The notes under the pieces were generated by a model. The model saw only the letters and a list, made by a program, of their open reading frames with translations. It was not told the DNA's origin and searched no databases. A stretch of 29,070 nucleotides of DNA from a virus. The DNA lies in the UHGV virus genome UHGV-1360357; one strand, 5' to 3'. Of the stretch, positions 2,240-20,854 are shown in pieces (position 1 is the stretch's first letter; each line of letters opens with the position of its first letter). The position numbers were made by a program, and so were the translations under genes.

Positions 2240-2947
2240 ATGGATTTGAATAAATTCGATGAGCCATTCAGCCCTGAAGATATCGAATGGCGAATACAGC
2301 AAAGCGGTAAAACACGCGATGGCAAAGTGTGGGCTATGGTGCTGGCTTATGTCACGAACCGGGCAATCATGAAACGCCTGGACGATGTTTGCGGCAAAGC
2401 AGGATGGCGCAATGAATACCGCGATATTCCCAACAACGGCGGAGTTGAATGCGGCATATCAATCAAAATTGATTCCGAATGGGTAACCAAATGGGATGCT
2501 GCTGAAAACACGCAAGTAGAAGCCGTCAAAGGTGGTCGTTCCGGTGCAATGAAGCGCGCTGCCGTTCAATGGGGAATCGGTCGGTATCTGTATAACCTTG
2601 AGGAAGGTTTCGCACAAACATCTCTCGATAAAAAGCAGGGGTGGCACAGGGCAAAACTGAAGGATGGAACAGGGTTTTACTGGCTCCCTCCAACGCTGCC
2701 CGGCTGGGCAATCCCAGCATCAGATAACAAACCATCACCAGAAAATACCAACCAGAAATCTCCATCGGTTGACTGCGAACAAATCCTGAAAGACTTCAGC
2801 GATTATGCATCGAAAGAAACTGATAAGAAAAAACTCATCGAGCGTTATCAGCGTGACTGGCAATTAATGGCTGGAAACGAGGAGGCGCAGGCTAAATGCG
2901 TTCAGGTAATGAACATCAGAGTTAACGAGCTAAAACAGGCGGCATAA
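2240..2947 (+). CDS. Rad52/22-family single-strand annealing protein (phage recombinase)
   Basis: GAGGTGA RBS; 235 aa; contains the Rad52-family signature region KGGRSGAMKRAAVQWGIGRYLY. Confidence 0.85.
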   Translation: MDLNKFDEPFSPEDIEWRIQQSGKTRDGKVWAMVLAYVTNRAIMKRLDDVCGKAGWRNEYRDIPNNGGVECGISIKIDSEWVTKWDAAENTQVEAVKGGRSGAMKRAAVQWGIGRYLYNLEEGFAQTSLDKKQGWHRAKLKDGTGFYWLPPTLPGWAIPASDNKPSPENTNQKSPSVDCEQILKDFSDYASKETDKKKLIERYQRDWQLMAGNEEAQAKCVQVMNIRVNELKQAA

Positions 2948-3463
2948 ATGGCAAGCAGAGGCGTAAATAAGGTGATCATTATTGGTCGCCTTGGGCATGA
3001 TCCAGAAATCAGATATTCACCATCAGGAACGGCATTTGCAAACCTTACAGTTGCTACGTCAGAACAATGGCGTGATAAGCAAACTGGAGAGCAAAAGGAG
3101 CAGACGGAGTGGCACCGCGTGGTAATGAGCGGGAAACTGGCAGAAATTGCCAGCGAATATCTGCGAAAAGGCTCTGAGGTTTATCTTGAAGGAAAATTGC
3201 GGACAAGAAAATGGCAGGATCAAAGCGGACAGGATCGGTTCACTACTGAAGTCATCGTGGGCGTTGGTGGAACTATGCAAATGATTGGTGGCAAGCAAGG
3301 AGGCAATGAACAGTCTTCACCTCAGCGAAATGACGGTCAGCAACAAAGACAACAACCTCAGCAGCAAGGGAATCACAGCGAACCACCTATGGATTTTGAC
3401 GACGATATCCCCTTTGCACCAGTAACTCTCCCTTTCCCTCGTCACGCTATTCACGCAATTTAA
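2948..3463 (+). CDS. ssb: single-stranded DNA-binding protein
   Basis: N-terminal OB fold ([23 protein letters not shown]...), Gly/Gln-rich linker and acidic C-terminal tail ending DDDIPF, typical of bacterial/phage SSB; start ATG adjacent to the annealase stop. Confidence 0.9.
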
Positions 3464-3471
3464 GGACTTAC

Positions 3472-4020
3472 ATGAATCACTTGATGGTTGACCTTGAAAC
3501 AATGGGCAACGGGCCATACGCGCCAGTTATTTCTGTTGGGGCGGTATTCTTTGACCCGAATACCGGAGAAACAGGAGAAGAGTTCTCGGTAAATATCTCG
3601 CTTGAGTCATCAATGCGATATCGGGCGCGTCCTGACGCTTCAACGATTTTATGGTGGCTGGAACAGAGTGAAGAAGCCAGAAAATCGCTAACCAGCAACA
3701 CTCAAGAGCTTTCAACGGCTCTTTCATGGTTATCTGAATTCATCATAAAGAACGCCAACCACAAACTCGTTCAGGTTTGGGGGAATGGAGCATCATTTGA
3801 CTGCGTTATTCTCCGCAACAGTTATTCGCTGACAGGGAAGCCAGTTCCGTGGCAGTGGTGGAATGACCGCGACGTAAGAACAATCGTCGAACTTGGGAAG
3901 GTAATAGGATTCGATCCTAAGCGAGATATGCCATTCAAAGGAACTCGCCACAACGCGCTTGATGATGCCATCCACCAAGCCAAATACGTTTCAGCGATCT
4001 GGAAAAAGTTAGCTAAATAA
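3472..4020 (+). CDS. DnaQ-like DEDDh 3'-5' exonuclease
   Basis: Exo I motif VDLETMG, Exo II GNGASFDCVIL, Exo III HNALDDAIHQAKY; 182 aa; AAGGA RBS. Confidence 0.85.
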   Translation: MNHLMVDLETMGNGPYAPVISVGAVFFDPNTGETGEEFSVNISLESSMRYRARPDASTILWWLEQSEEARKSLTSNTQELSTALSWLSEFIIKNANHKLVQVWGNGASFDCVILRNSYSLTGKPVPWQWWNDRDVRTIVELGKVIGFDPKRDMPFKGTRHNALDDAIHQAKYVSAIWKKLAK

Positions 4021-7259: not shown

Positions 7260-7478
7260 ATGTACTTGACACTTCAGGAGTGGAACGCACGCCAACGACG
7301 CCCAAGAAGCCTTGAAACAGTTCGTCGATGGGTACGCGAGTGCAGGATATTCCCTCATCCGGTTAAGGATGGAAGAGAGTATCTGTTCCACGAATCAGCG
7401 GTAAAGGTTGACTTAAATCGACCAGTAACAGGTAGCCTTTTGAAGAGGATCAGAAATGGGAAGAAGGCGAAGTCATGA
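7260..7478 (+). CDS. xis: excisionase Xis (lambda-type)
   Basis: 72 aa, MYLTLQEWNARQRRPRSLETVRRWVRECRIFPHPVKDGREYLFHESAVKVDL..., recognised as lambda Xis; overlaps the int start as in lambda. Confidence 0.9.
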   Translation: MYLTLQEWNARQRRPRSLETVRRWVRECRIFPHPVKDGREYLFHESAVKVDLNRPVTGSLLKRIRNGKKAKS

Positions 7479-8526
7479 GCGCCGGGATTTACCCCCTAAC
7501 CTTTATATAAGAAACAATGGATATTACTGCTACAGGGACCCAAGGACGGGTAAAGAGTTTGGATTAGGCCGAGACAGGCGAATCGCAATCACTGAAGCTA
7601 TACAGGCCAACATTGAGTTATTTTCAGGACACAAACACAAGCCTCTGACAGCGAGAATCAACAGTGATAATTCCGTTACGTTACATTCATGGCTTGATCG
7701 CTACGAAAAAATCCTGGCCAGCAGAGTAATCAAGCAGAAGACACTCATAAATTACATGAGCAAAATTAAAGCAATAAGGAGGGGTCTGCCTGATGCTCCA
7801 CTTGAAGACATCACCACAAAAGAAATTGCGGCAATGCTCAATGGATACATAGACGAGGGCAAGGCGGCGTCAGCCAAGTTAATCAGATCAACACTGAGCG
7901 ATGCATTCCGAGAGGCAATAGCTGAAGGCCATATAACAACAAACCCTGTCGCTGCCACTCGCGCAGCAAAATCAGAGGTAAGGAGATCAAGACTTACGGC
8001 TGACGAATACCTGAAAATTTATCAAGCAGCAGAATCATCACCATGTTGGCTCAGACTTGCAATGGAACTGGCTGTTGTTACCGGGCAACGAGTTGGTGAT
8101 TTATGCGAAATGAAGTGGTCTGATATCGTAGATGGATATCTTTATGTCGAGCAAAGCAAAACAGGCGTAAAAATTGCCATCCCAACAGCATTGCATGTTG
8201 ATGCTCTCGGAATATCAATGAAGGAAACACTTGATAAATGCAAAGAGATTCTTGGCGGAGAAACCATAATTGCATCTACTCGTCGCGAACCGCTTTCATC
8301 CGGCACAGTATCAAGGTATTTTATGCGCGCACGAAAAGCATCAGGTCTTTCCTTCGAAGGGGATCCGCCTACCTTTCACGAGTTGCGCAGTTTGTCTGCA
8401 AGACTCTATGAGAAGCAGATAAGCGATAAGTTTGCTCAACATCTTCTCGGGCATAAGTCGGACACCATGGCATCACAGTATCGTGATGACAGAGGCAGGG
8501 AGTGGGACAAAATTGAAATCAAATAA
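7456..8526 (+). CDS. int: tyrosine integrase Int (lambda-type)
   Basis: 356 aa; N-terminal arm-binding domain MGRRRSHERRDLPPNLYIRNNGYYCYRDPRTGKEFGLGRDRR, catalytic region with the conserved R...H-x-x-R...Y residues (HELRSLSARL, LLGHKSDTMASQY); recognised as lambda Int. Confidence 0.95.
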   Translation: MGRRRSHERRDLPPNLYIRNNGYYCYRDPRTGKEFGLGRDRRIAITEAIQANIELFSGHKHKPLTARINSDNSVTLHSWLDRYEKILASRVIKQKTLINYMSKIKAIRRGLPDAPLEDITTKEIAAMLNGYIDEGKAASAKLIRSTLSDAFREAIAEGHITTNPVAATRAAKSEVRRSRLTADEYLKIYQAAESSPCWLRLAMELAVVTGQRVGDLCEMKWSDIVDGYLYVEQSKTGVKIAIPTALHVDALGISMKETLDKCKEILGGETIIASTRREPLSSGTVSRYFMRARKASGLSFEGDPPTFHELRSLSARLYEKQISDKFAQHLLGHKSDTMASQYRDDRGREWDKIEIK

Positions 8527-8989: not shown

Positions 8990-10936
8990 TTAAAGAATAA
9001 TTCTTTCAACCTTCCAAGTTGCAGATCTACTTCCTGAAATTCCAACTCCATTTGAATCTTTGAGAAGAATTCTAAATGATGTTTCTGTTACCAAATCATA
9101 CGTTGCATTTATTGCTGCGCCATCTCCTATCGATATTGAGATAAAATCAGGCACAACTCCAAGTCCGTGAGTTATTATTTGTCCATTTGAATAAACCCCA
9201 GTTCCTATTTTAGTCGTTGCATACCCGGCATTGTTTGCAAGGACAACATTAACCGAATTTGCTCCTAATTTAGCAATCTTCCTATCAGATGAAATCTCTG
9301 TAGATTGTATTGCATTATTTGAAATAACTGCATCTTTTATAGCCCTGAAATCTCCAGGTGTTCCTGATACAGCATTAACAAGTATTGCATACTGCATACT
9401 TCTATCACTTCTTTTATTGCCGAAAGCATTACCGCAAATTGTTGTCCCGGTAAATCCAGATGCTCCCGTGTTATCAAGAAGAATTCCGCACCTATATGTA
9501 TTTGATGTATCAGAAGGCAAACCTATACCTCTTATGGAATTATTGGATACTATATTATTATCTGGCTTGACATTTGCATTATTGCAGTAAATGCGAATTC
9601 CAACATCACAAAATGCATCTAATACATTATCAGATATAACATTACCCGCTCCCCACACATCAATACCCATAAACGAATCAGCACCATCTCCAAAAAATTT
9701 ATTTTGAGTAACTATTGTTCCGCTACCCCTAATCAATATAGCAGGCCTTGGAATGCTTGAAGTCTTTTTGCTATCATTGTAGCCATGATTATCGTTTATA
9801 TGAGATTCCCCCCCCGCACTATCTATGCAGCAATTACACGAATCTATTATATTTTTATTTATCCTTACATAGACAGAATCGTGTTTTATACCTGTAATAA
9901 AATTTGATATGGAATTTGATACAAAACTAGTTGCCTTACATGGCAATGAAACGCCATGTATAGCGTCCTTAGACGCTCCTATGGCAACAAAATGTATCCC
10001 TGTAACAATTGCTGGGTTCTCATTAGATGATGTGTCACCTATGGTAATAGCAAAAGAATTCTCATCTTCAGGACCATCAATTGTTAATATCGTTTGTGGC
10101 GTATATCCTTGAGATATTTGCGATCCATTTCCTGAACCAAACCCTCTCATACTTACAAAAGATGGGATTCTTAGTTTTTCTGTTACTCTACAGTTGCCCC
10201 CCCAAAAAAATTCCTCTTTAACATGGGCAGCGGCCAGCATGATTGGAATTGTATCATCTTTAACTCCATCAAGCGTCGCTCCATAATTTCTAAGGTCATT
10301 GGTTTCATACCCATTTAAATAACCAATACATCTCCATCCTGTTGAGGTATATCTGGCAAATTTATCATCTGGGGGAACAGTAAAAGGAGGAACTGTCATT
10401 TCTCCTCCAGTTATTTCATTTTCATATACCCAAAACAACCCATCATAATCTTTGATTGCGCATCGGTTGTCTCGAATGATATTTTGCTTGTCATAGTTCC
10501 CACAATATGAAAAACCAGTTGCTAATTTCTGTAGATTTGTTCCTGATGCTGAGTTTATTAATGATGCGCCATTTTCGCTAGTTAATACATTATTTAGAGG
10601 GTCAGGATCATACTTCAGCACATTAGGAAAATAGAACTGCTGCGCACCGTACGCATCATAAACAGCCATAGAATGGCCTTGCACGGTTACGAATTTGGCA
10701 ATCTGTCCGTTATATGCAGGATACCCGCCAGCGTTAATGATGATTGGCTGTGCAACAGGAACGTGAGAACCGTCTTCATTCTCTACATAAACCTGAATCT
10801 GGTTTTCAGGATTTACCGGGTCAGTGTCAATTTTTCCGATATAAATTTTGCCATTGGCAACCGCTTTAAAAGAACGCGCCATAGTGAAGAGTTGCGAAGG
10901 CATGCTTACCACAACATTTGCGGTGATATCTGTCAT
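8990..10936 (-). CDS. tailspike protein (P22 gp9 family; conserved head-binding domain, divergent receptor-binding beta-helix)
   Basis: 648 aa; first ~115 residues ([58 protein letters not shown]...) match the P22/HK620-type tailspike head-binding domain; the rest is Asn/Gly/Ser-rich with beta-helix-like repeats but unrelated to the P22 endorhamnosidase domain. Confidence 0.9.
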
Positions 10937-13041: not shown

Positions 13042-13527
13042 ATGAAAAAATCACTATTAATTGTCCCGCTTCTGCTGGCTGGATGCGCAAAAGTAAGTGA
13101 CTACCAAGCAAGTTGCGAACAACGCTATCCAAAGCTTAGTGATATGGCTAATTGCCTTGATGCCAGCGTGAAGAACGACTCACGCATGGCATCAGCACCA
13201 ACACCTAAGCTGTATGTCCTTGCTGCGAAGATGCTCGGGCAAGGTGTCGATCAAGGCAAGATAAGTGACGCACAGGCAAGACTTGAGCTTCAGAATCTTT
13301 ATGTTCAATTACAAAGCCAAGAACAAGCCCAACAAATAGCACAAAGCCAAGCATTCCAGCAGGCTTTATTGAATTATCAGGCTGTAAACACAATGCAAGC
13401 GATCGAGCAAAAAGCGCGCCAGCCTGTTATAACTCAACCTTACCCAACACGCGTTGACACATATACAAACTGCAATTCAGGTTTTGGAAACACGGTAACA
13501 TGCAACAGTAGCAGTAATATCAGGTAG
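13042..13527 (+). CDS. lipoprotein (lipobox LLAGC, +2 Ala), 161 aa, Gln-rich
   Basis: MKKSLLIVPLLLAGC lipoprotein signal; residue after the Cys is Ala (not Asp), consistent with outer-membrane sorting; Gln-rich helical middle, Cys/Asn-rich C-terminus. The RBS is weak or distant. Confidence 0.65.
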   Translation: MKKSLLIVPLLLAGCAKVSDYQASCEQRYPKLSDMANCLDASVKNDSRMASAPTPKLYVLAAKMLGQGVDQGKISDAQARLELQNLYVQLQSQEQAQQIAQSQAFQQALLNYQAVNTMQAIEQKARQPVITQPYPTRVDTYTNCNSGFGNTVTCNSSSNIR

Positions 13528-13541
13528 TTATATCTTATCTT

Positions 13542-15389
13542 TTATTGCTGTTCTGCTGTAATTTGGCTTGAAAGTATAGGGCGTATCGCATTTGCAGCAT
13601 TATTTAGCGCTCTTTCATAGGCTGGTGTTCCTGCTTTGGTGTTTGCCAAACGTAAGAGAGCATTCCTTGCTGCTTTGGACTCATACAAGCGCATCATTGC
13701 ACCGAAACCAGCCTCAAGCCCCATTGATACGCCAAGAGTCGCAGTTGCGCCAATCGTCCTTATCCTGTTGGCTTGCGATTGCCCCGTCTGAGTTACTACA
13801 TTTGCGGTGTCTGACCTTGCTGTTTGCTGCAGAACTTCATGAAGAGCATCAAGTTCTTTCATGTGCTTTCCAGAAAAAATAGTGTTGTAAATTTCACCGC
13901 CTGACTGAGATTTCAGCTTATTAACTTCAGTGATGAACTTGGCTGGAGAGTCACCGGCCTTTTCCGCTATTTTGCTGACGTAAGCTGCACGCATAGCATC
14001 TTTCCCTTTATCATCCAGTGCGCTCCAGATTCGTTTCACGTCAGATGGTTTTCTGCTTAATACAACGGTATTTATAAGTTCAGGACTGGCTTCACTGCTT
14101 GCCTTGTTGAGTTTGTTAGCAATGTTTTTATTAAGCACCTTATTATAAACGTTTGCATAATCGGAATTTGCTTTAAGGTATTTTGCTGCGTCTGATGCAC
14201 CGAGGTTTTTAGCAACTGCGTTACGAAGGTCTTTTGACATTGCATTCTCTACCATATTGGTAGCTGCTTTTGCCTGGTTGGGGAAGACCATAGCATCTCC
14301 CTGAACATTAGATCTAAATGCTGTTCTGTGCTGACGCAAGAGATCAAACGTAACATCCAAATCAGTTGCAGGGTTTGCTAATTCTTCACGTAGGTTACGC
14401 AAGGATGTAAGCAGGCTTTGATTGGCAGACGTCCCAAGTCGTTCCTGTCTTGCGATCGCTGTATTCAGAGCATTCATGGTATTTGTGGTATCAACTGCGG
14501 CATTACCCATTTTATTGGTGACGTCATTGATAACAGCGCCAGCGGCATCCTTCCTCCCCCTTAACGTGGTGGTCAGAGATTTCACCACATCATCAGGGTT
14601 GTACTCACCAAAACGGTCAAAATAATTACTTACCAGCTTACTACGCGTTGCATATTGCTCCGCTCGCTTTGAGCCTGTCCCGAGCAAAGCCCCCTCGGCA
14701 TCCTGAGTAAGGCCGCGAGTGAAAGCATTTTTCGGCGGGATAACATCAGATGTCATTGGTGTCACGCCCATCGATTCTGATGTGGCAATTTTCTTCGCCA
14801 CTTCTGGCGCAATATCACCTTTTATAGCCGTTATTCCACGCCCTATTCCCTTTGCTGCGGCGGAAAGAACACCCTGAGCGGCAAGGTTAACTCCGGCATT
14901 TTTAGCTGCATTTTGTGCGAAATCGCCTTTCTGATTTGCGGCCTCTGCCAGTGATCCAATAGCCATGCTTCCTGCCGTTCCAACTCCTGGAACTAAATAC
15001 CCACCAATTGTTTCACCGGCTTGTGCGTAGGGGTCTGTCGGTCTGTCTACTGGACGATAAACATCATCCAAAACCTTGGGTCCACCAAGCCCCTGACTGA
15101 TTGCATTAATCAGACTTGCGCCACCCTGCAATACGTCAAATGGTATGTTTACCAGACCACGACCAGCCTGTTCTGCAATTTGCCCTGCACTTTGACCACC
15201 AGTGAGCCAATCGCCAGCTTGTTGCATCAATGATGGTTCTTCCCGTGTTGGTGCATTATTGTCCTGATTAACTGTTTGTTGCTGAACAGCCTGACCAGCA
15301 AAATACTCATCAATGGCGGCCCCAATATCTTCCGTGCTCGTACCATCAGGGAAGGTAAATGTCTTACCGTTTGCAGTTACTTTCATCAT
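13542..15389 (-). CDS. ejection (injection) protein, P22 gp16 homolog
   Basis: 615 aa; N-terminus (M)[32 protein letters not shown]; size and position match P22 gp16. Confidence 0.8.
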
Positions 15390-16852
15390 TCCACCGTAAA
15401 TTGAATGCCTGATTTTGAGGTATATGATCCGGATTGACTCTGCTGCTGTTGGGTATTTGTCGGTTGTTGGCTATTGCTCTGTTGTTGACTATTTGCAGCA
15501 CTTGAAACCACCAAAGCATCATAAACGCGACCAGACTGACCACGTAATGAGTTATATTGGCCCTGCATTTTTCGCATTTTTGTTTCAGTAGCAGCCTTGG
15601 AATCACCGGGCTGAGGCAGGTACATTTTGGAATACTCCTGCATCTCTGGCAGAGTAATTGCTGCACCTGTTTCTGGGCGCAAAATTGCATACAAGGCGTC
15701 TCTCGCATTTACCATATATTGCTGCTCCGCTGGTGATAGGCTTAAATTTGCAATAGTCCCATCACCAAGAGAGCGATTTATTAATGCAACTCGCTTAGGG
15801 TCAATGCTTTTACTAAGCTGATTCATTGAGTCCATTGAATCTTTTAATCGCAAAGCAAATCCTGCCGCCTTCTTGGAACCCTCATTAGCCTTATCTATGA
15901 TGCTTTGCGCTTGTGGCAAGCTAATTGGTTTAATGCCATCACCAGATATAGGTTGGTTTAGTTTTCCTGCTTCCTCGCTGCCATCGGTGTAATACTTAGT
16001 TACCGAGCCATCAGGATTGGTTTCAACCTTAAGTAATTTCTTAGCATTGGGATTAATTCCCGCCGCTGCCGCAAATGCCGCTGCACCATCTGGATCCGCC
16101 TTTAACATTTGCGCGTACTGATTGTAATTCTGCATTGCGGCTGTTGGTGCATATGCTGACGTTAACGCATTTGCTCGGCTAATATCCTGCCCTCTCGCCT
16201 GAAGTGCTTCGCTGGCCTGATTGCTGCGGATTGTCTCTGCCAGCCTGCCTCGGTCAATTTCACGACCAGCCATCTTGTCCTGAACATTGAAGTAATCAAT
16301 CGGACCAAGCGCAGCCATCCCAAGATGATCAACAAACTCACCAAATCCTGAAGGATTCTGCTGATACATCTGAGCAACGCTGTTAGGGTCAACACCGACG
16401 CGAGTCAGTTCCTTGGCGTTGTTTTGCAGCCATGATTGCATTGCTTCTGGAGACGATGACGCAAGGCGTGCGCCAGCCGCTAAGGTGCCGATAGAATTAC
16501 GCTGGTCTTCATCAATGAATCCCATGCCTTTACGAACGGATTCAATCTGGTCTGGATATTGAGTAGCCAACTGACGCAAAGCACCGCGATCACCAGACGC
16601 ATAAGCATTAGCGTATGCCTGCTGAAATTCTTTCTGCCGCTGAGCCTGCTTTTCCTGCTGAAACACCCCCGCAATACCTGAAAGGCCTTGCAAAGCAGTC
16701 AGCCCAACATTGTTAGCGCCTGAACGCTCAATATCATTGTTCTTCCTGATAAGCTGAAGCGTATTGCCGATGTCATTTACGCTCGGAGCGTTTGAGTTGA
16801 CGCCGCCGATACCAGCCAACAATCCGCCGTTTGTTCCTTGCCAAGTAGCCAT
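15386..16852 (-). CDS. ejection protein, P22 gp20 homolog
   Basis: 488 aa; Gln/Ala-rich; position between the gp7 and gp16 homologs; ATGA coupling to gp16. Confidence 0.8.
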
Positions 16853-16861
16853 GATTACCCC

Positions 16862-17554
16862 TTAAAACAACGAGCCAAGCAGGCCAAGTCCGCCGCCAAT
16901 TGCCGCACCTAATCCAGTGCCAAGTCCTGGAACAATAGAGCCAAGAGCAGCGCCAGTCATAGCCCCTGAAGCTCCGCCGCTAATTGCTGTCTGAAGACCT
17001 GATGGTTTATTGGCATTAGCAGCGGCAAGAGCCGCACTTTGCTGCGAAATCTGACTCATGTTGTTGGCATATGTCTGCCCGGCGTTTGCCTGACCTTGCA
17101 GTGCGCCAAGACCAATATTTGCCAGATTCTGGTAGTTGTTCATCTGACCAGACAGCCACTGCTGACCAAGCGTTGGTGCGATTGTTGCTAACTGATTACC
17201 GGTTGCAGTGGAACCCAATCCACCTGTTGCTTCCGCTGCCGCCAGACTCTGATAGCGAGCCTGACCAGCAAGATCTTTGTACTGCTGAGAGTTGTAATAC
17301 TGGTTAAGTGCCTGACCTTGCCCCTGAAGAGAGGAAAGATTCTGCAATTGTGATACGTACTGCTGAGCGAGTGGCGTGAACGGAGCAAGGTTTTTCATGA
17401 TCGTCTGCCACTGCTGATTCTGCAGGTCTGCGGCATACTTCTGAGCTTCTGCTGCATACTTTGCGCTTTTATCGGACCCACCTTTCCCGCCTTTTTCAGG
17501 GCAATAAGGTTCCTCGCCGCGCAGTTTTCTGCCCAGCTTAAATGCATATAACAT
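16862..17554 (-). CDS. ejection protein, P22 gp7 homolog
   Basis: 230 aa; N-terminus MLYAFKLGRKLRGEEP; Gly/Ala-rich C-terminus; synteny. Confidence 0.8.
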   Translation of the reverse strand: MLYAFKLGRKLRGEEPYCPEKGGKGGSDKSAKYAAEAQKYAADLQNQQWQTIMKNLAPFTPLAQQYVSQLQNLSSLQGQGQALNQYYNSQQYKDLAGQARYQSLAAAEATGGLGSTATGNQLATIAPTLGQQWLSGQMNNYQNLANIGLGALQGQANAGQTYANNMSQISQQSAALAAANANKPSGLQTAISGGASGAMTGAALGSIVPGLGTGLGAAIGGGLGLLGSLF

Positions 17555-17556
17555 GG

Positions 17557-18012
17557 CTATCTCCCGTGATTCAGGAAGTCGATTAGTTCTTCGCGTGTGG
17601 CGCTGTAAAAAGTCACGTCATCCACGCCTTTGAAGTATTTCTTGATGGTTCCTACACGCTTAAGGCCAATCATTGCGCAGTACATCTGACCGTGGCGGAA
17701 TTTGCGTGCAGCGAACGATGTTACGCACTGAACGGTGGTGTTAGTCAGAATGTATCGCCAGAACGCCAGCCCGATTTCCTTGCTGAATCCACGAATCTCT
17801 GGCAGGTACATGGCGTGGCAATCGAATGTCAGCGGCTGAATCTCATGATAGTAAACAATGCCGCCGAACTGCCCGTGCACGTTCACCTCAAAGTAACGGC
17901 AATCATGTTTATAGTCGTATCCATCACCGTTGTTGCTCCCGGCAATAATGTCAGGGTGATTTCCGACTGCTTCGATCAAGTCGATGTTTCGCGTTGGTTT
18001 GAACTGAATCAT
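17557..18012 (-). CDS. P22 gp14 homolog (tail-associated assembly/ejection protein)
   Basis: 151 aa; [51 protein letters not shown]... matches gp14 as recalled. Confidence 0.8.
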   Translation of the reverse strand: MIQFKPTRNIDLIEAVGNHPDIIAGSNNGDGYDYKHDCRYFEVNVHGQFGGIVYYHEIQPLTFDCHAMYLPEIRGFSKEIGLAFWRYILTNTTVQCVTSFAARKFRHGQMYCAMIGLKRVGTIKKYFKGVDDVTFYSATREELIDFLNHGR

Positions 18013-18965
18013 TACTGCTCCGCGATTATCTTGATGGTTGTGGCAGTAAACGCCGCACCATTCGACTGAATGGTTAACGTACTGCCATTTGTGGCAAGAA
18101 AGCCGTCTTTATCCACACTGAAGAACGTAGCTAACAGGATGTTGTCGGTTGTTGTCGCCGCATTACGACTGCTTACCAGTGTGTCAGGAACAGAACCGGA
18201 AAATGTTAGCTGCATTGACCTGTTGGCGGTTCCGCTGGGCCACGTCCCGACAATCGACAGCTTGAAGAACAGGGTTTTGTTCTCGTTGAACACAACCATC
18301 TTGTTGTTAACGGTGTCGAAGAATGGTGCCAACGTGCCGGATGACGGCGTGAACGTTTTCAGCAGGCTAACAAGGTTGGTAGGCGCTGTCGGAATTGTTA
18401 CCGATACCCCTGAGTAAACAACCTCTGATTTCTTGCGCGTGGTGGCATACTCAAGCGCAGATATTCTTGTTGAGTGATCACCAACTGTGCTTTGTAGCGT
18501 CGAAATACTTCCCTCTGCCGCTGTGAGCCTGGTATCAAGTGCGTCGATATCGGTTGTATTCTGAGTTATGCGCGCATCATGGTTTGCTAACTCAGATTCA
18601 TTGGCAGCAATTCTCGTCTCGTGATCAGCCAACTCTGTTTCAGCAGCCGTAATCCTTGTTTCATGATCTGCAAGAGTGCTTTCCGCTGCTGCAATTCTAT
18701 GCTCATGATTGATGAGAGTTTCTTCAGCTGCTTCAATTCTGGATTCATGGTCTGCAAGGGTGACATCCTGCTCATCGTTCCTGACCTGTGCATCATAAGC
18801 GCCCTGTCCGGCCTCGTTGGCTTTGTTAGCCACGTTACCAACATCAGTACCCTGTGCGATAACGTAAAGCAGATATGACTGCGAGAAGATATTGCGTGGA
18901 AGGACTGATGTGTCGAGCCGTGTAGCCTGAATGATTACCGGCACATTGAGATTCGAATCCGCCAT
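18012..18965 (-). CDS. tail needle protein (P22 gp26 family) with extended coiled coil and C-terminal knob-like domain
   Basis: 317 aa; N-terminus [43 protein letters not shown] as in gp26; heptad repeats LADHETRI...; C-terminal ~140 aa beta-rich domain absent from P22 gp26 (Sf6/HK620-like knob). Confidence 0.85.
18567..18776. repeat. five imperfect tandem 42-nt repeats (14-aa double heptads) inside the tail needle gene
   Basis: DNA units such as aattctcgtctcgtgatcagccaactctgtttcagcagccgt / aatccttgtttcatgatctgcaagagtgctttccgctgctgc recur with 42-nt period; encode [70 protein letters not shown]. Confidence 0.6.
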
Positions 18966-20383
18966 TACTCAATCCTTATCTGGCAGCCAGACAGAGTGAC
19001 AGGTGACTTCGTGATAACGCGCAATTTGAAGCCGACATTTTTCCTGATGCGCCCGACTCGCTTCCACAAAACGCGTTTGTCGTAAACGAACGGTTCATTC
19101 TGCTCAATCATCTGCTCACGCCCGTAATTGATGCCGTCAGTAGTTGCAGAGAGGAACAGGCGGTCAGCATACTGCGCAACGCCAGTTGAAGATTCAACTT
19201 CAAGGTCGAAAACTCTGGCGTTATCCGCTTTGAACAACGGAGTAAACAGCAGGTGTTCCTGTTGCTTGTCGTACTGGCTGCTGATATCGAATTGCAATTT
19301 CCCGGTCACGGACTCCAGCTTGTCGCCGCACGTTATCTGATTGCCTTCGTAAATGAAGTCGATAGCGCGGTACACATCGTCATACAGGCCTGTTTTCAGT
19401 ACACACCATTGCGGACCATTAGCGCTTGAAGATGCGTCATACACTAGGACGTGGCGCGGCAGGTGGATAATCAGCAACTCATGAGCATCAAAGCGCAACG
19501 ATTCCATCACGCCATCAGCCAGTTCATCAGCAGTGTAGGAGCGGAGGATTTTCTCAATGCTCGCACTGGCGATTGGTGATACCTGACCGGAACCGATGAT
19601 GTACACAGACGGCGCACCCGTTGCCGGATTACTGATGAACGCATACGAATCAGCAAACGGCGTTTTGCAGTAAGTCCCGGCAATGCCTTTCTGCACCATC
19701 AGCGATGGCTGGGCGACATACAAAGCAGCACCAACGGTGGTTGCACCAGTCAGGGAAAAATACTCAATCGTCGATGAACCAAAGCAGACGATGAAGTCTC
19801 GCCATGTTCCGATGCCGATGATGCCGTCAGGCTGAGACTCAGCACGATATTGTGCGCTGTATCGGTCAGGATGTGATTCGTCTTCAAGGTCAGTGATAAA
19901 CCATGAATCAGTGCCGTCTTTTGACCACGCATAACGCCCACGTAAACGCGTAATGTCGCGAACCGAACCTAACTCATACTGTGTGAATCCGCTGTCTGTA
20001 GGCCAGTTTGAGACTGTTTTAACTGTGCCATCATAGCGGTATTCGACCAGTTGCCCGTTAACACCTACCGCCTGTGATGTCCGACCATGTGCCATTGATA
20101 CGCGACCACTTCCGGCAACGTCACCGACTTCACTTTCGCCTTTGTAGAGCTTGCCACCACACACACGATAAACAGCATTCTGCGCCATGTTGTACTCGAC
20201 GCCTCGAGATACACCGTTCACATCAGAACGTTTGGCAATGCCCGGGAATGAGCGAAGATATCCGCTGCTGTTGAGGATTTCTTTGGGTGTAGCCAACATA
20301 TTCACTGGCAGATAGTCGATATAGTCGGCGTTTCTAAAGTCTTTGCCGACGCCTTTCATGAGCGGAAGTTGCTGAATCGGCAT
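18965..20383 (-). CDS. tail hub protein, P22 gp10 homolog
   Basis: 472 aa; near-identical along its length to P22 gp10 as recalled ([49 protein letters not shown]...). Confidence 0.9.
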
Positions 20384-20392
20384 TTATTCACC

Positions 20393-20854
20393 TCACGTAC
20401 TCGGATCATCTTTCTCGATGTAAAACCGATTCCACGTAAACGCGCTTTTGTTACCACTACCGCGAGGCATGTCATTTCGTCGCTCAAGTGGTGGTATTTT
20501 GGTTAAAGCGATACAGATTGTCTGATATGCACTGTCAGCAGCGGTCAGGAGAGCATCCGACGGCTGAATGACGTTATCCATGCACACTTGCACAGCGAGC
20601 TTCAAAGCGACGCCATCATTTGCCCATGCAGGGATACCTGAATCATCGTCAGGTAACGGCATGATGCCGTTTTCTGTATCCGCAAACTGATATCCAAGCT
20701 CGATACCTTTCGCCTGCCATGCTGCCATCATGTCTTCGAGGTCATTAATGGCATCTTCAATTGCCTGAGGGTCGGCATCTGTCAACGTGGCATTGGAATA
20801 CAGCCCGGCTTTTCGTAAAGCCTTAAGAACGAGATCACCCTTCGTTTTCGCCAT
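20393..20854 (-). CDS. head-to-tail adaptor, P22 gp4 homolog
   Basis: 153 aa; MAKTKGDLVLKALRKAGLYSNATLTDADPQAIEDAINDLEDMMAAW aligns with the gp4 N-terminus. Confidence 0.85.
   Translation of the reverse strand: MAKTKGDLVLKALRKAGLYSNATLTDADPQAIEDAINDLEDMMAAWQAKGIELGYQFADTENGIMPLPDDDSGIPAWANDGVALKLAVQVCMDNVIQPSDALLTAADSAYQTICIALTKIPPLERRNDMPRGSGNKSAFTWNRFYIEKDDPST

Follow-up and report, generated by a model that had tools for sequence, protein, structure and literature searches.

In the window (the whole stretch of viral DNA that was analysed, UHGV-1360357, 29,070 nt), the gene at 18012-18965 is an allele of the HS1 prophage needle gene and very probably supplies a P22-like (Lederbergvirus-type) phage of E. 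coli with its tail needle. The shaft of this needle contains an array of 42-nt tandem repeats, each of which encodes a double heptad. As each repeat unit spans complete heptads, the coiled coil stays in phase when units are gained or lost, and the natural relatives of the protein consequently form a length ladder.

Identity, domains and genomic setting of the needle

The gene is orthologous to P22 gene 26, Sf6 gene 9 and HS1 EcHS_A0316. The sequence-only reading had placed a gp26-like needle at this site, within limits that are exactly those of one minus-strand open reading frame including its stop codon. The translated protein is identical to the needle of the HS1 prophage (E. coli HS) at 311 of 317 positions without any gap, and the two genes, both 954 nt long, are 98% identical in DNA. 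Given this identity and the equal length, the window gene is allelic to the HS1 gene, whose product has been purified and genetically swapped into P22, and whose knob has been crystallised. None of the observations contradicts this identification. Leavitt et al. 2013 treat the HS1 protein as a tail needle, citing Bhardwaj 2009 for the family (PMC3741392). The 98% identity to HS1 further suggests that the product would form a homotrimeric fibre, close the gp4/gp10 tail channel as a plug and keep the DNA inside. Plus-strand reading frames inside the gene (e.g. 18070-18417 and 18621-18878) were judged to be antisense artefacts, as the coding gene is well supported.

A PDB sequence search assigns the parts of the needle to several solved structures. 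The knobs of HS1 (4K6B, E = 1e-89) and Sf6 gene 9 (3RWN, E = 8.6e-89) align with residues 165-317 at 98-99% identity. At the other end, P22 gp26 (2POH/3C9I, E about 1e-41) aligns with residues 1-139, HK620 gp26 (5BU5, domain E 9e-40) with residues 1-79 and the in-virion fragment 8EAP with residues 3-64. The Pfam family PF16532 (Phage_tail_NK, the Sf6-type needle knob) is found at residues 136-317 with 355.9 bits against a cutoff of 27 (E = 4e-107), the match spanning profile positions 1-175 of 175. The traits of the P22 gp26 family are present: an N-terminal hub-binding domain of ~60 residues, an unbroken heptad shaft and the characteristic gene position.

In Sf6, the N-terminal hairpins of the needle were observed by cryo-EM as a quasi-sixfold plug inside the tail hub (PMC9728967). 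At the opposite end of the window needle, the knob proper comprises ~144 residues (about 174-317). Its identity of 98-99% to 4K6B and 3RWN, which extends over 153 residues, indicates that it would adopt the TNF-like jelly-roll trimer fold. Using the ligand residue list of PMC3741392, we found all of the L-glutamate-binding residues (E181, K235, S283, D285, L290 and K312 in HS1 numbering) as well as the phosphate-binding triad S266-R267-N268 to be kept. The single-sequence AlphaFold2 model of the knob, built without an alignment, is poor (mean pLDDT 60) and adds nothing on the fold. A β-rich C-terminal domain of ~140 residues, replacing the P22-type tip with a knob, had been proposed from the sequence; the Pfam and PDB matches and the identity to HS1 agree with this description.

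Position a of the shaft is occupied by L, I or V. Within the repeat array it is L or I throughout, while position d alternates between His and Ala. Single-sequence AlphaFold2 predicts one continuous helix over residues 42-179, with pLDDT >90 for about residues 75-165. The published heptad count of HS1 is 16, compared with 11 in Sf6 and P22; P22-like needles span 11-16 heptads and come with two alternative tips (PMC3741392). The NxxQD motif, which lies in the first heptad of the window shaft, coordinates Ca2+ in P22 gp26 (3C9I; PMC13580157), and by analogy the motif of the window needle may bind an ion. Further polar layers are predicted in the trimer core, with His at d in six layers (heptads 2, 4, 6, 8, 10 and 15) and, besides NxxQD, Asn at d in two (heptads 9 and 11). 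Such positions might bind ions or render the shaft sensitive to pH.

The genes that surround the needle (Table 1) are the virion-assembly module of a P22-like phage. They follow the order gp4, gp10, needle, gp14-like, gp7, gp20, gp16 and tailspike, with the portal, scaffold and coat genes upstream. The TAA codon of the tail hub gene overlaps the needle ATG by 1 nt (TAATG, 18963-18967), and the ATG of the gp14-like gene overlaps the needle TAA, also by 1 nt (18010-18014). The location of the needle between gp10 and the gp14/gp7/gp20/gp16 genes is shared with HS1 and 16 further loci. For the window as a whole, alignments to mosaic P22-like phages and prophages of E. coli cover no more than about half of its length, with 91-96% identity.

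Two further features of the window lie outside this gene order. A lambda-type integrase gene (7456-8526, plus strand) and the tailspike gene converge at a distance of ~460 bp, whereas they are found at opposite ends of the integrated HS1 prophage. The window thus resembles the unintegrated (virion or circular) form, and the segment 8527-8989 looks like the place where attP should be expected. Just past gp16 and in the opposite orientation to the ejection genes, an ORF of 161 aa (13042-13527, plus strand) gave no Pfam match. A 161-aa gene, likewise without a Pfam match, occupies the same position in loci L010, L011 and L013, and the ORF may be a moron or accessory gene.

Table 1. Features of the tail needle gene and its neighbours in the window
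Feature	Position	Strand	Basis or remark
Tailspike with P22 head-binding domain	8990-10936	(-)	Pfam
gp16 ejection protein homologue	13542-15389	(-)	Position; PF26808 P22_gp16 on the matching gene in related loci
gp20 ejection protein homologue	15386-16852	(-)	Pfam
gp7 ejection protein homologue	16862-17554	(-)	Pfam
DUF2824 (P22 gp14-like), immediately downstream of the needle	17557-18012	(-)	PF11039, E = 2.5e-52
Tail needle gene, 317 aa	18012-18965	(-)	Single ORF including the TAA stop
Sf6/HS1-type C-terminal knob (TNF-like jelly roll, by identity to solved knobs), residues 175-317 and stop	18012-18443	(-)	PF16532, 4K6B, 3RWN
Coiled-coil shaft, 16 unbroken heptads, N63 (position a) to A174	18444-18779	(-)	Heptad register table
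Distal isolated 'VGDHSTRI' half-unit, residues 161-168	18462-18485	(-)	Putative partner of unit 4 in the recombination behind the 268-aa variant
Five tandem 42-nt/14-residue double heptads (LADHETRI type), residues 68-137	18555-18764	(-)	Autocorrelation, repeat search
NxxQD polar core motif (N63, Q66, D67), first heptad	18765-18779	(-)	Read from the sequence
N-terminal tail-hub-binding 'plug' domain, residues 1-62	18780-18965	(-)	HK620/P22 gp26 alignments; plug function from the literature
gp10-type tail hub, immediately upstream of the needle	18965-20383	(-)	PF11134, E = 1.8e-301
gp4-type (P22) tail adaptor	20393-20854	(-)	Pfam

The 42-nt repeat array and the length ladder

Units 1-4 of the array are clear, with 52-74% nucleotide identity among themselves, and unit 5 is degenerate (31-57% to the others). 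Tandem Repeats Finder reported no array, even at a score of 30, the lowest allowed, because the units are too diverged. We therefore used lag autocorrelation with codon shuffles instead. The lag-42 identity in 18567-18776 is 0.595, compared with 0.307 ± 0.035 in the shuffles (z = 8.2), and none of 20,000 shuffles reached the observed value. Lag 42 is the best in-frame lag and was matched at any lag by none of 3000 shuffles; its signal is 0.50-0.60, against 0.38 for lag 21. The repeat search recovered four tandem copies spaced 42 nt apart and a distal copy (18450-18489) at a distance of 147 nt from the array.

The sequence-only reading had described five consecutive 14-residue units at 18567-18776, visible as a 42-nt periodicity in the DNA. 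The periodicity holds against the codon shuffles, and the interval denotes this array with its register shifted slightly. The count of five holds, with four clear units and a weak fifth.

Among the best 120 cluster representatives, the knob-type needles are 268, 282, 289, 296, 303, 310, 317, 331, 338 and 345 aa long, which corresponds, in this order, to 9, 11, 12, 13, 14, 15, 16, 18, 19 and 20 heptads; the 338- and 345-aa alleles were each seen in one draft assembly, and 84-nt expansions could be assembly errors. The 303- and 289-aa alleles are found in complete chromosomes and the 331-aa allele on five contigs. It had been predicted that copy number varies between relatives, and the comparison of repeat number across them was set beforehand as the test. 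The number is not invariant but extends from 9 to 20 heptads in these 120 representatives, and the variants compared in DNA show in-frame changes of 42, 84 or 147 nt.

We compared the DNA of five length variants (303, 289, 268, 345 and 331 aa) with the window gene as the reference. The 303-aa allele lacks exactly 42 nt, with the junction in the AGAATTG stretch common to units 1 and 2, and the 289-aa allele lacks 84 nt. In the 268-aa allele 147 nt are missing, and the junction lies at TGATCAC (window 18621-18627), which unit 4 shares with the VGDHSTRI half-unit. The 345-aa allele, as assembled in its single draft, contains an additional 84 nt that duplicate units 1-2, the copies being identical at 81 of 84 positions. 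The same 84-nt duplication is combined with a 42-nt loss in the 331-aa allele. All of these gains and losses map within the repeat array and keep the heptad phase.

A second shaft lineage of knob needles contains a 28-residue unit (RIAQNES DIASLDT RVQSLES QVSDHET) in one, two or three copies, forming a series of 296 aa (P0064), 310 aa (P0052) and 338 aa (P0051, the single draft observation). Since this lineage expands a different unit, repeat expansion arose independently at least twice in the gene family.

Several homologues fall outside the ladder. Non-integral heptad counts were obtained for P0055 (285 aa), P0048 (298 aa), P0053 (309 aa) and P0005 (316 aa), which could reflect errors in sequencing, stutters in the coiled coil or alleles without function. 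Extra heptads in homologues of 324 and 394 aa were considered and rejected, as both have 16 heptads and the surplus reflects different start calls or a fusion. The entries of 257-263 aa are partial. In many chromosomes of E. coli O157:H7 only the knob half is present (93.9% identity over query nt 507-952), under the annotation 'tail needle knob protein'. Small P22-remnant prophage fragments are mentioned in PMC3741392, and the O157:H7 genes fit this description.

Origin of the length differences and roles of shaft and knob

The needle projects past the tailspikes and is thought to sense the outer membrane and to trigger opening of the channel (PMC6024685, PMC3741392). In the mechanism that we propose for the window phage, three chains would assemble into a fibre whose ~60 N-terminal residues plug the gp10 hub channel and retain the packaged DNA, a function taken from the literature. 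Residues 63-174 would form the trimeric 16-heptad shaft, and residues ~174-317 the jelly-roll knob, with a fold and three bound L-glutamates as in the published structures. During adsorption, digestion of the O-antigen by the tailspikes would allow the needle tip to reach the outer membrane. Release of the needle would then clear the way through the channel for the ejection proteins (the gp7, gp20 and gp16 homologues) and the DNA.

The 42-nt double heptads (L at a, H at d, I at a, A at d) probably originated by internal duplication. From the junctions and end products of the length variants, we infer that recombination or slippage between units, at short common stretches, would add or remove 14, 28 or 49 residues and could have produced the ladder. 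Genes for a Rad52/Rad22-family (Erf-like) annealase, an SSB and an Rv2179c-like 3'-5' exonuclease lie consecutively in the window (2240-4020, plus strand; annealase and SSB at 2240-3463). As a speculation, the phage's own Rad52/Erf-type annealase could promote short-homology recombination in the needle array.

It is possible that the variation in shaft length is neutral recombination noise in a repeat-rich gene, tuned to nothing; we see this explanation as evenly poised between right and wrong. In its favor, an identical 303-aa needle (P0010) occurs beside six or more divergent tailspike receptor domains (527-740 aa) and together with two distinct terminase/portal/scaffold sets, and the three 317-aa needles (window, HS1 and L015) are accompanied by three unrelated tailspikes. 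In addition, P22 tolerates replacements of both tip and shaft (PMC3741392). Other observations speak for an effect of the shaft: replacement of shaft residues altered the kinetics of K+ release in hybrids (PMC3741392), and Bhardwaj et al. 2009, by the title given in PMC3741392 and PMC6024685, report that structural stability correlates with coiled-coil length. Whole heptads are kept in nearly all variants, which also weighs against pure noise, yet shows selection for foldability only and not for a particular length.

The loci with the P0010 needle (L007-L014, needle at 10001-10912) have one of two head modules, Terminase_6N, Phage-scaffold and a portal of 721 aa or Terminase_3 and a portal of 732 aa, and their ejection proteins vary in length. 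They show how mosaicism proceeds gene by gene around a gp10-needle-gp14 block that itself hardly varies. A coupling of needle length to tailspike type was rejected after an informal comparison on a small sample.

Needle length could have a selective value of some kind. A fuller reading takes the array as a recurrently expanding and contracting length module (9-20 heptads, a difference of ~110 Å) in two independent lineages, with the annealase acting at 7-nt homologies. Copy number would then possibly be selected, either as a ruler for the envelope, O-antigen or capsule or as a setting of plug stability and ejection timing. Taken with all of its parts, we consider this reading unlikely.

A role of the knob as a host-specific secondary-receptor-binding domain (e.g. 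for OmpA or OmpC), by which the needle would determine host range, appears more doubtful still. The TNF-like fold does resemble the receptor-binding knobs of adenovirus and PRD1, and efficient entry of Sf6 needs OmpA or OmpC (PMC3741392, PMC9728967, PMC6024685). However, P22 fitted with either knob, that of HS1 or that of Sf6, shows normal infection of Salmonella and keeps its host range, with tip changes slowing K+ release and shifting the kinetics of DNA delivery, and virion function is not visibly affected by mutations of the glutamate site (PMC3741392). The knob is also near-invariant (98-99%) across phages with unrelated tailspikes, unlike a specificity determinant.

Finally, it is hardly credible that the 42-nt periodicity is a mere by-product of coiled-coil amino-acid constraints, through convergent heptad composition, rather than a true duplicated array that gains and loses units: the units are indeed degenerate (31-74% nucleotide identity) and invisible to Tandem Repeats Finder, and a 21-nt periodicity, here 0.38, is expected of any coiled coil, but the dominant lag is 42, composition-keeping codon shuffles never reproduced the periodicity, and relatives differ by exact unit-sized changes within the array, among them 84-nt duplications whose copies agree at 81-82 of 84 positions.

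Comparison with known needles

The protein, its 16-heptad shaft, the knob structure and the phenotypes of knob swaps are already known from the 98%-identical HS1 allele, and beyond correct annotation the finding matters little. Our survey of public sequences makes one modest addition. Knob-type needles extend over 9-20 heptads, compared with the published 11-16, by clean phase-preserving changes of 42, 84 and 147 nt, and an unchanged needle pairs freely with tailspikes unrelated to one another. The variants constitute a ready natural allelic series in which needle length could be related to virion stability or DNA-ejection kinetics.

The closest known system is the HS1 needle (EcHS_A0316/WP_000785558; 4K6B), which shares with the window needle its length of 317 aa, the 16 heptads, the five double-heptad units, the knob ligand residues and the gene neighbourhood. 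It differs by six substitutions (E82A, D100E, A107D, T138A, F205L and A269S, window to HS1). The surroundings of the two genes are mosaic, and the tailspikes of the two phages are unrelated.

Sf6 gp9 (3RWN; PMC9728967) has the same role in the tail, and its plug domain and knob are near-identical to those of the window needle. In contrast, it is 282 aa long with 11 heptads and lacks the four to five tandem LADHETRI units. Its divergent shaft, published as 67% identical to that of HS1 (PMC3741392), is no simple deletion derivative.

The gp26 needles of P22 (2POH, 3C9I) and HK620 (5BU5), both of which plug the gp10 hub, resemble the window needle in the plug domain, the proximal coiled coil, the NxxQD motif and the LADHExRI heptads. 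P22 gp26, with 233 aa and 11 heptads, contains no knob and instead terminates in a triple β-helix and a short coiled-coil tip.

An engineered parallel to the array is provided by the extended P22 gp26 fibre (4LIN, 300 aa), to which residues 1-184 of the window needle align. That fibre is man-made, contains the P22-type tip and has a different block duplicated. There, an in-register duplication of the helical core resulted in a stable longer fibre, and the natural array of the window needle follows the same principle.
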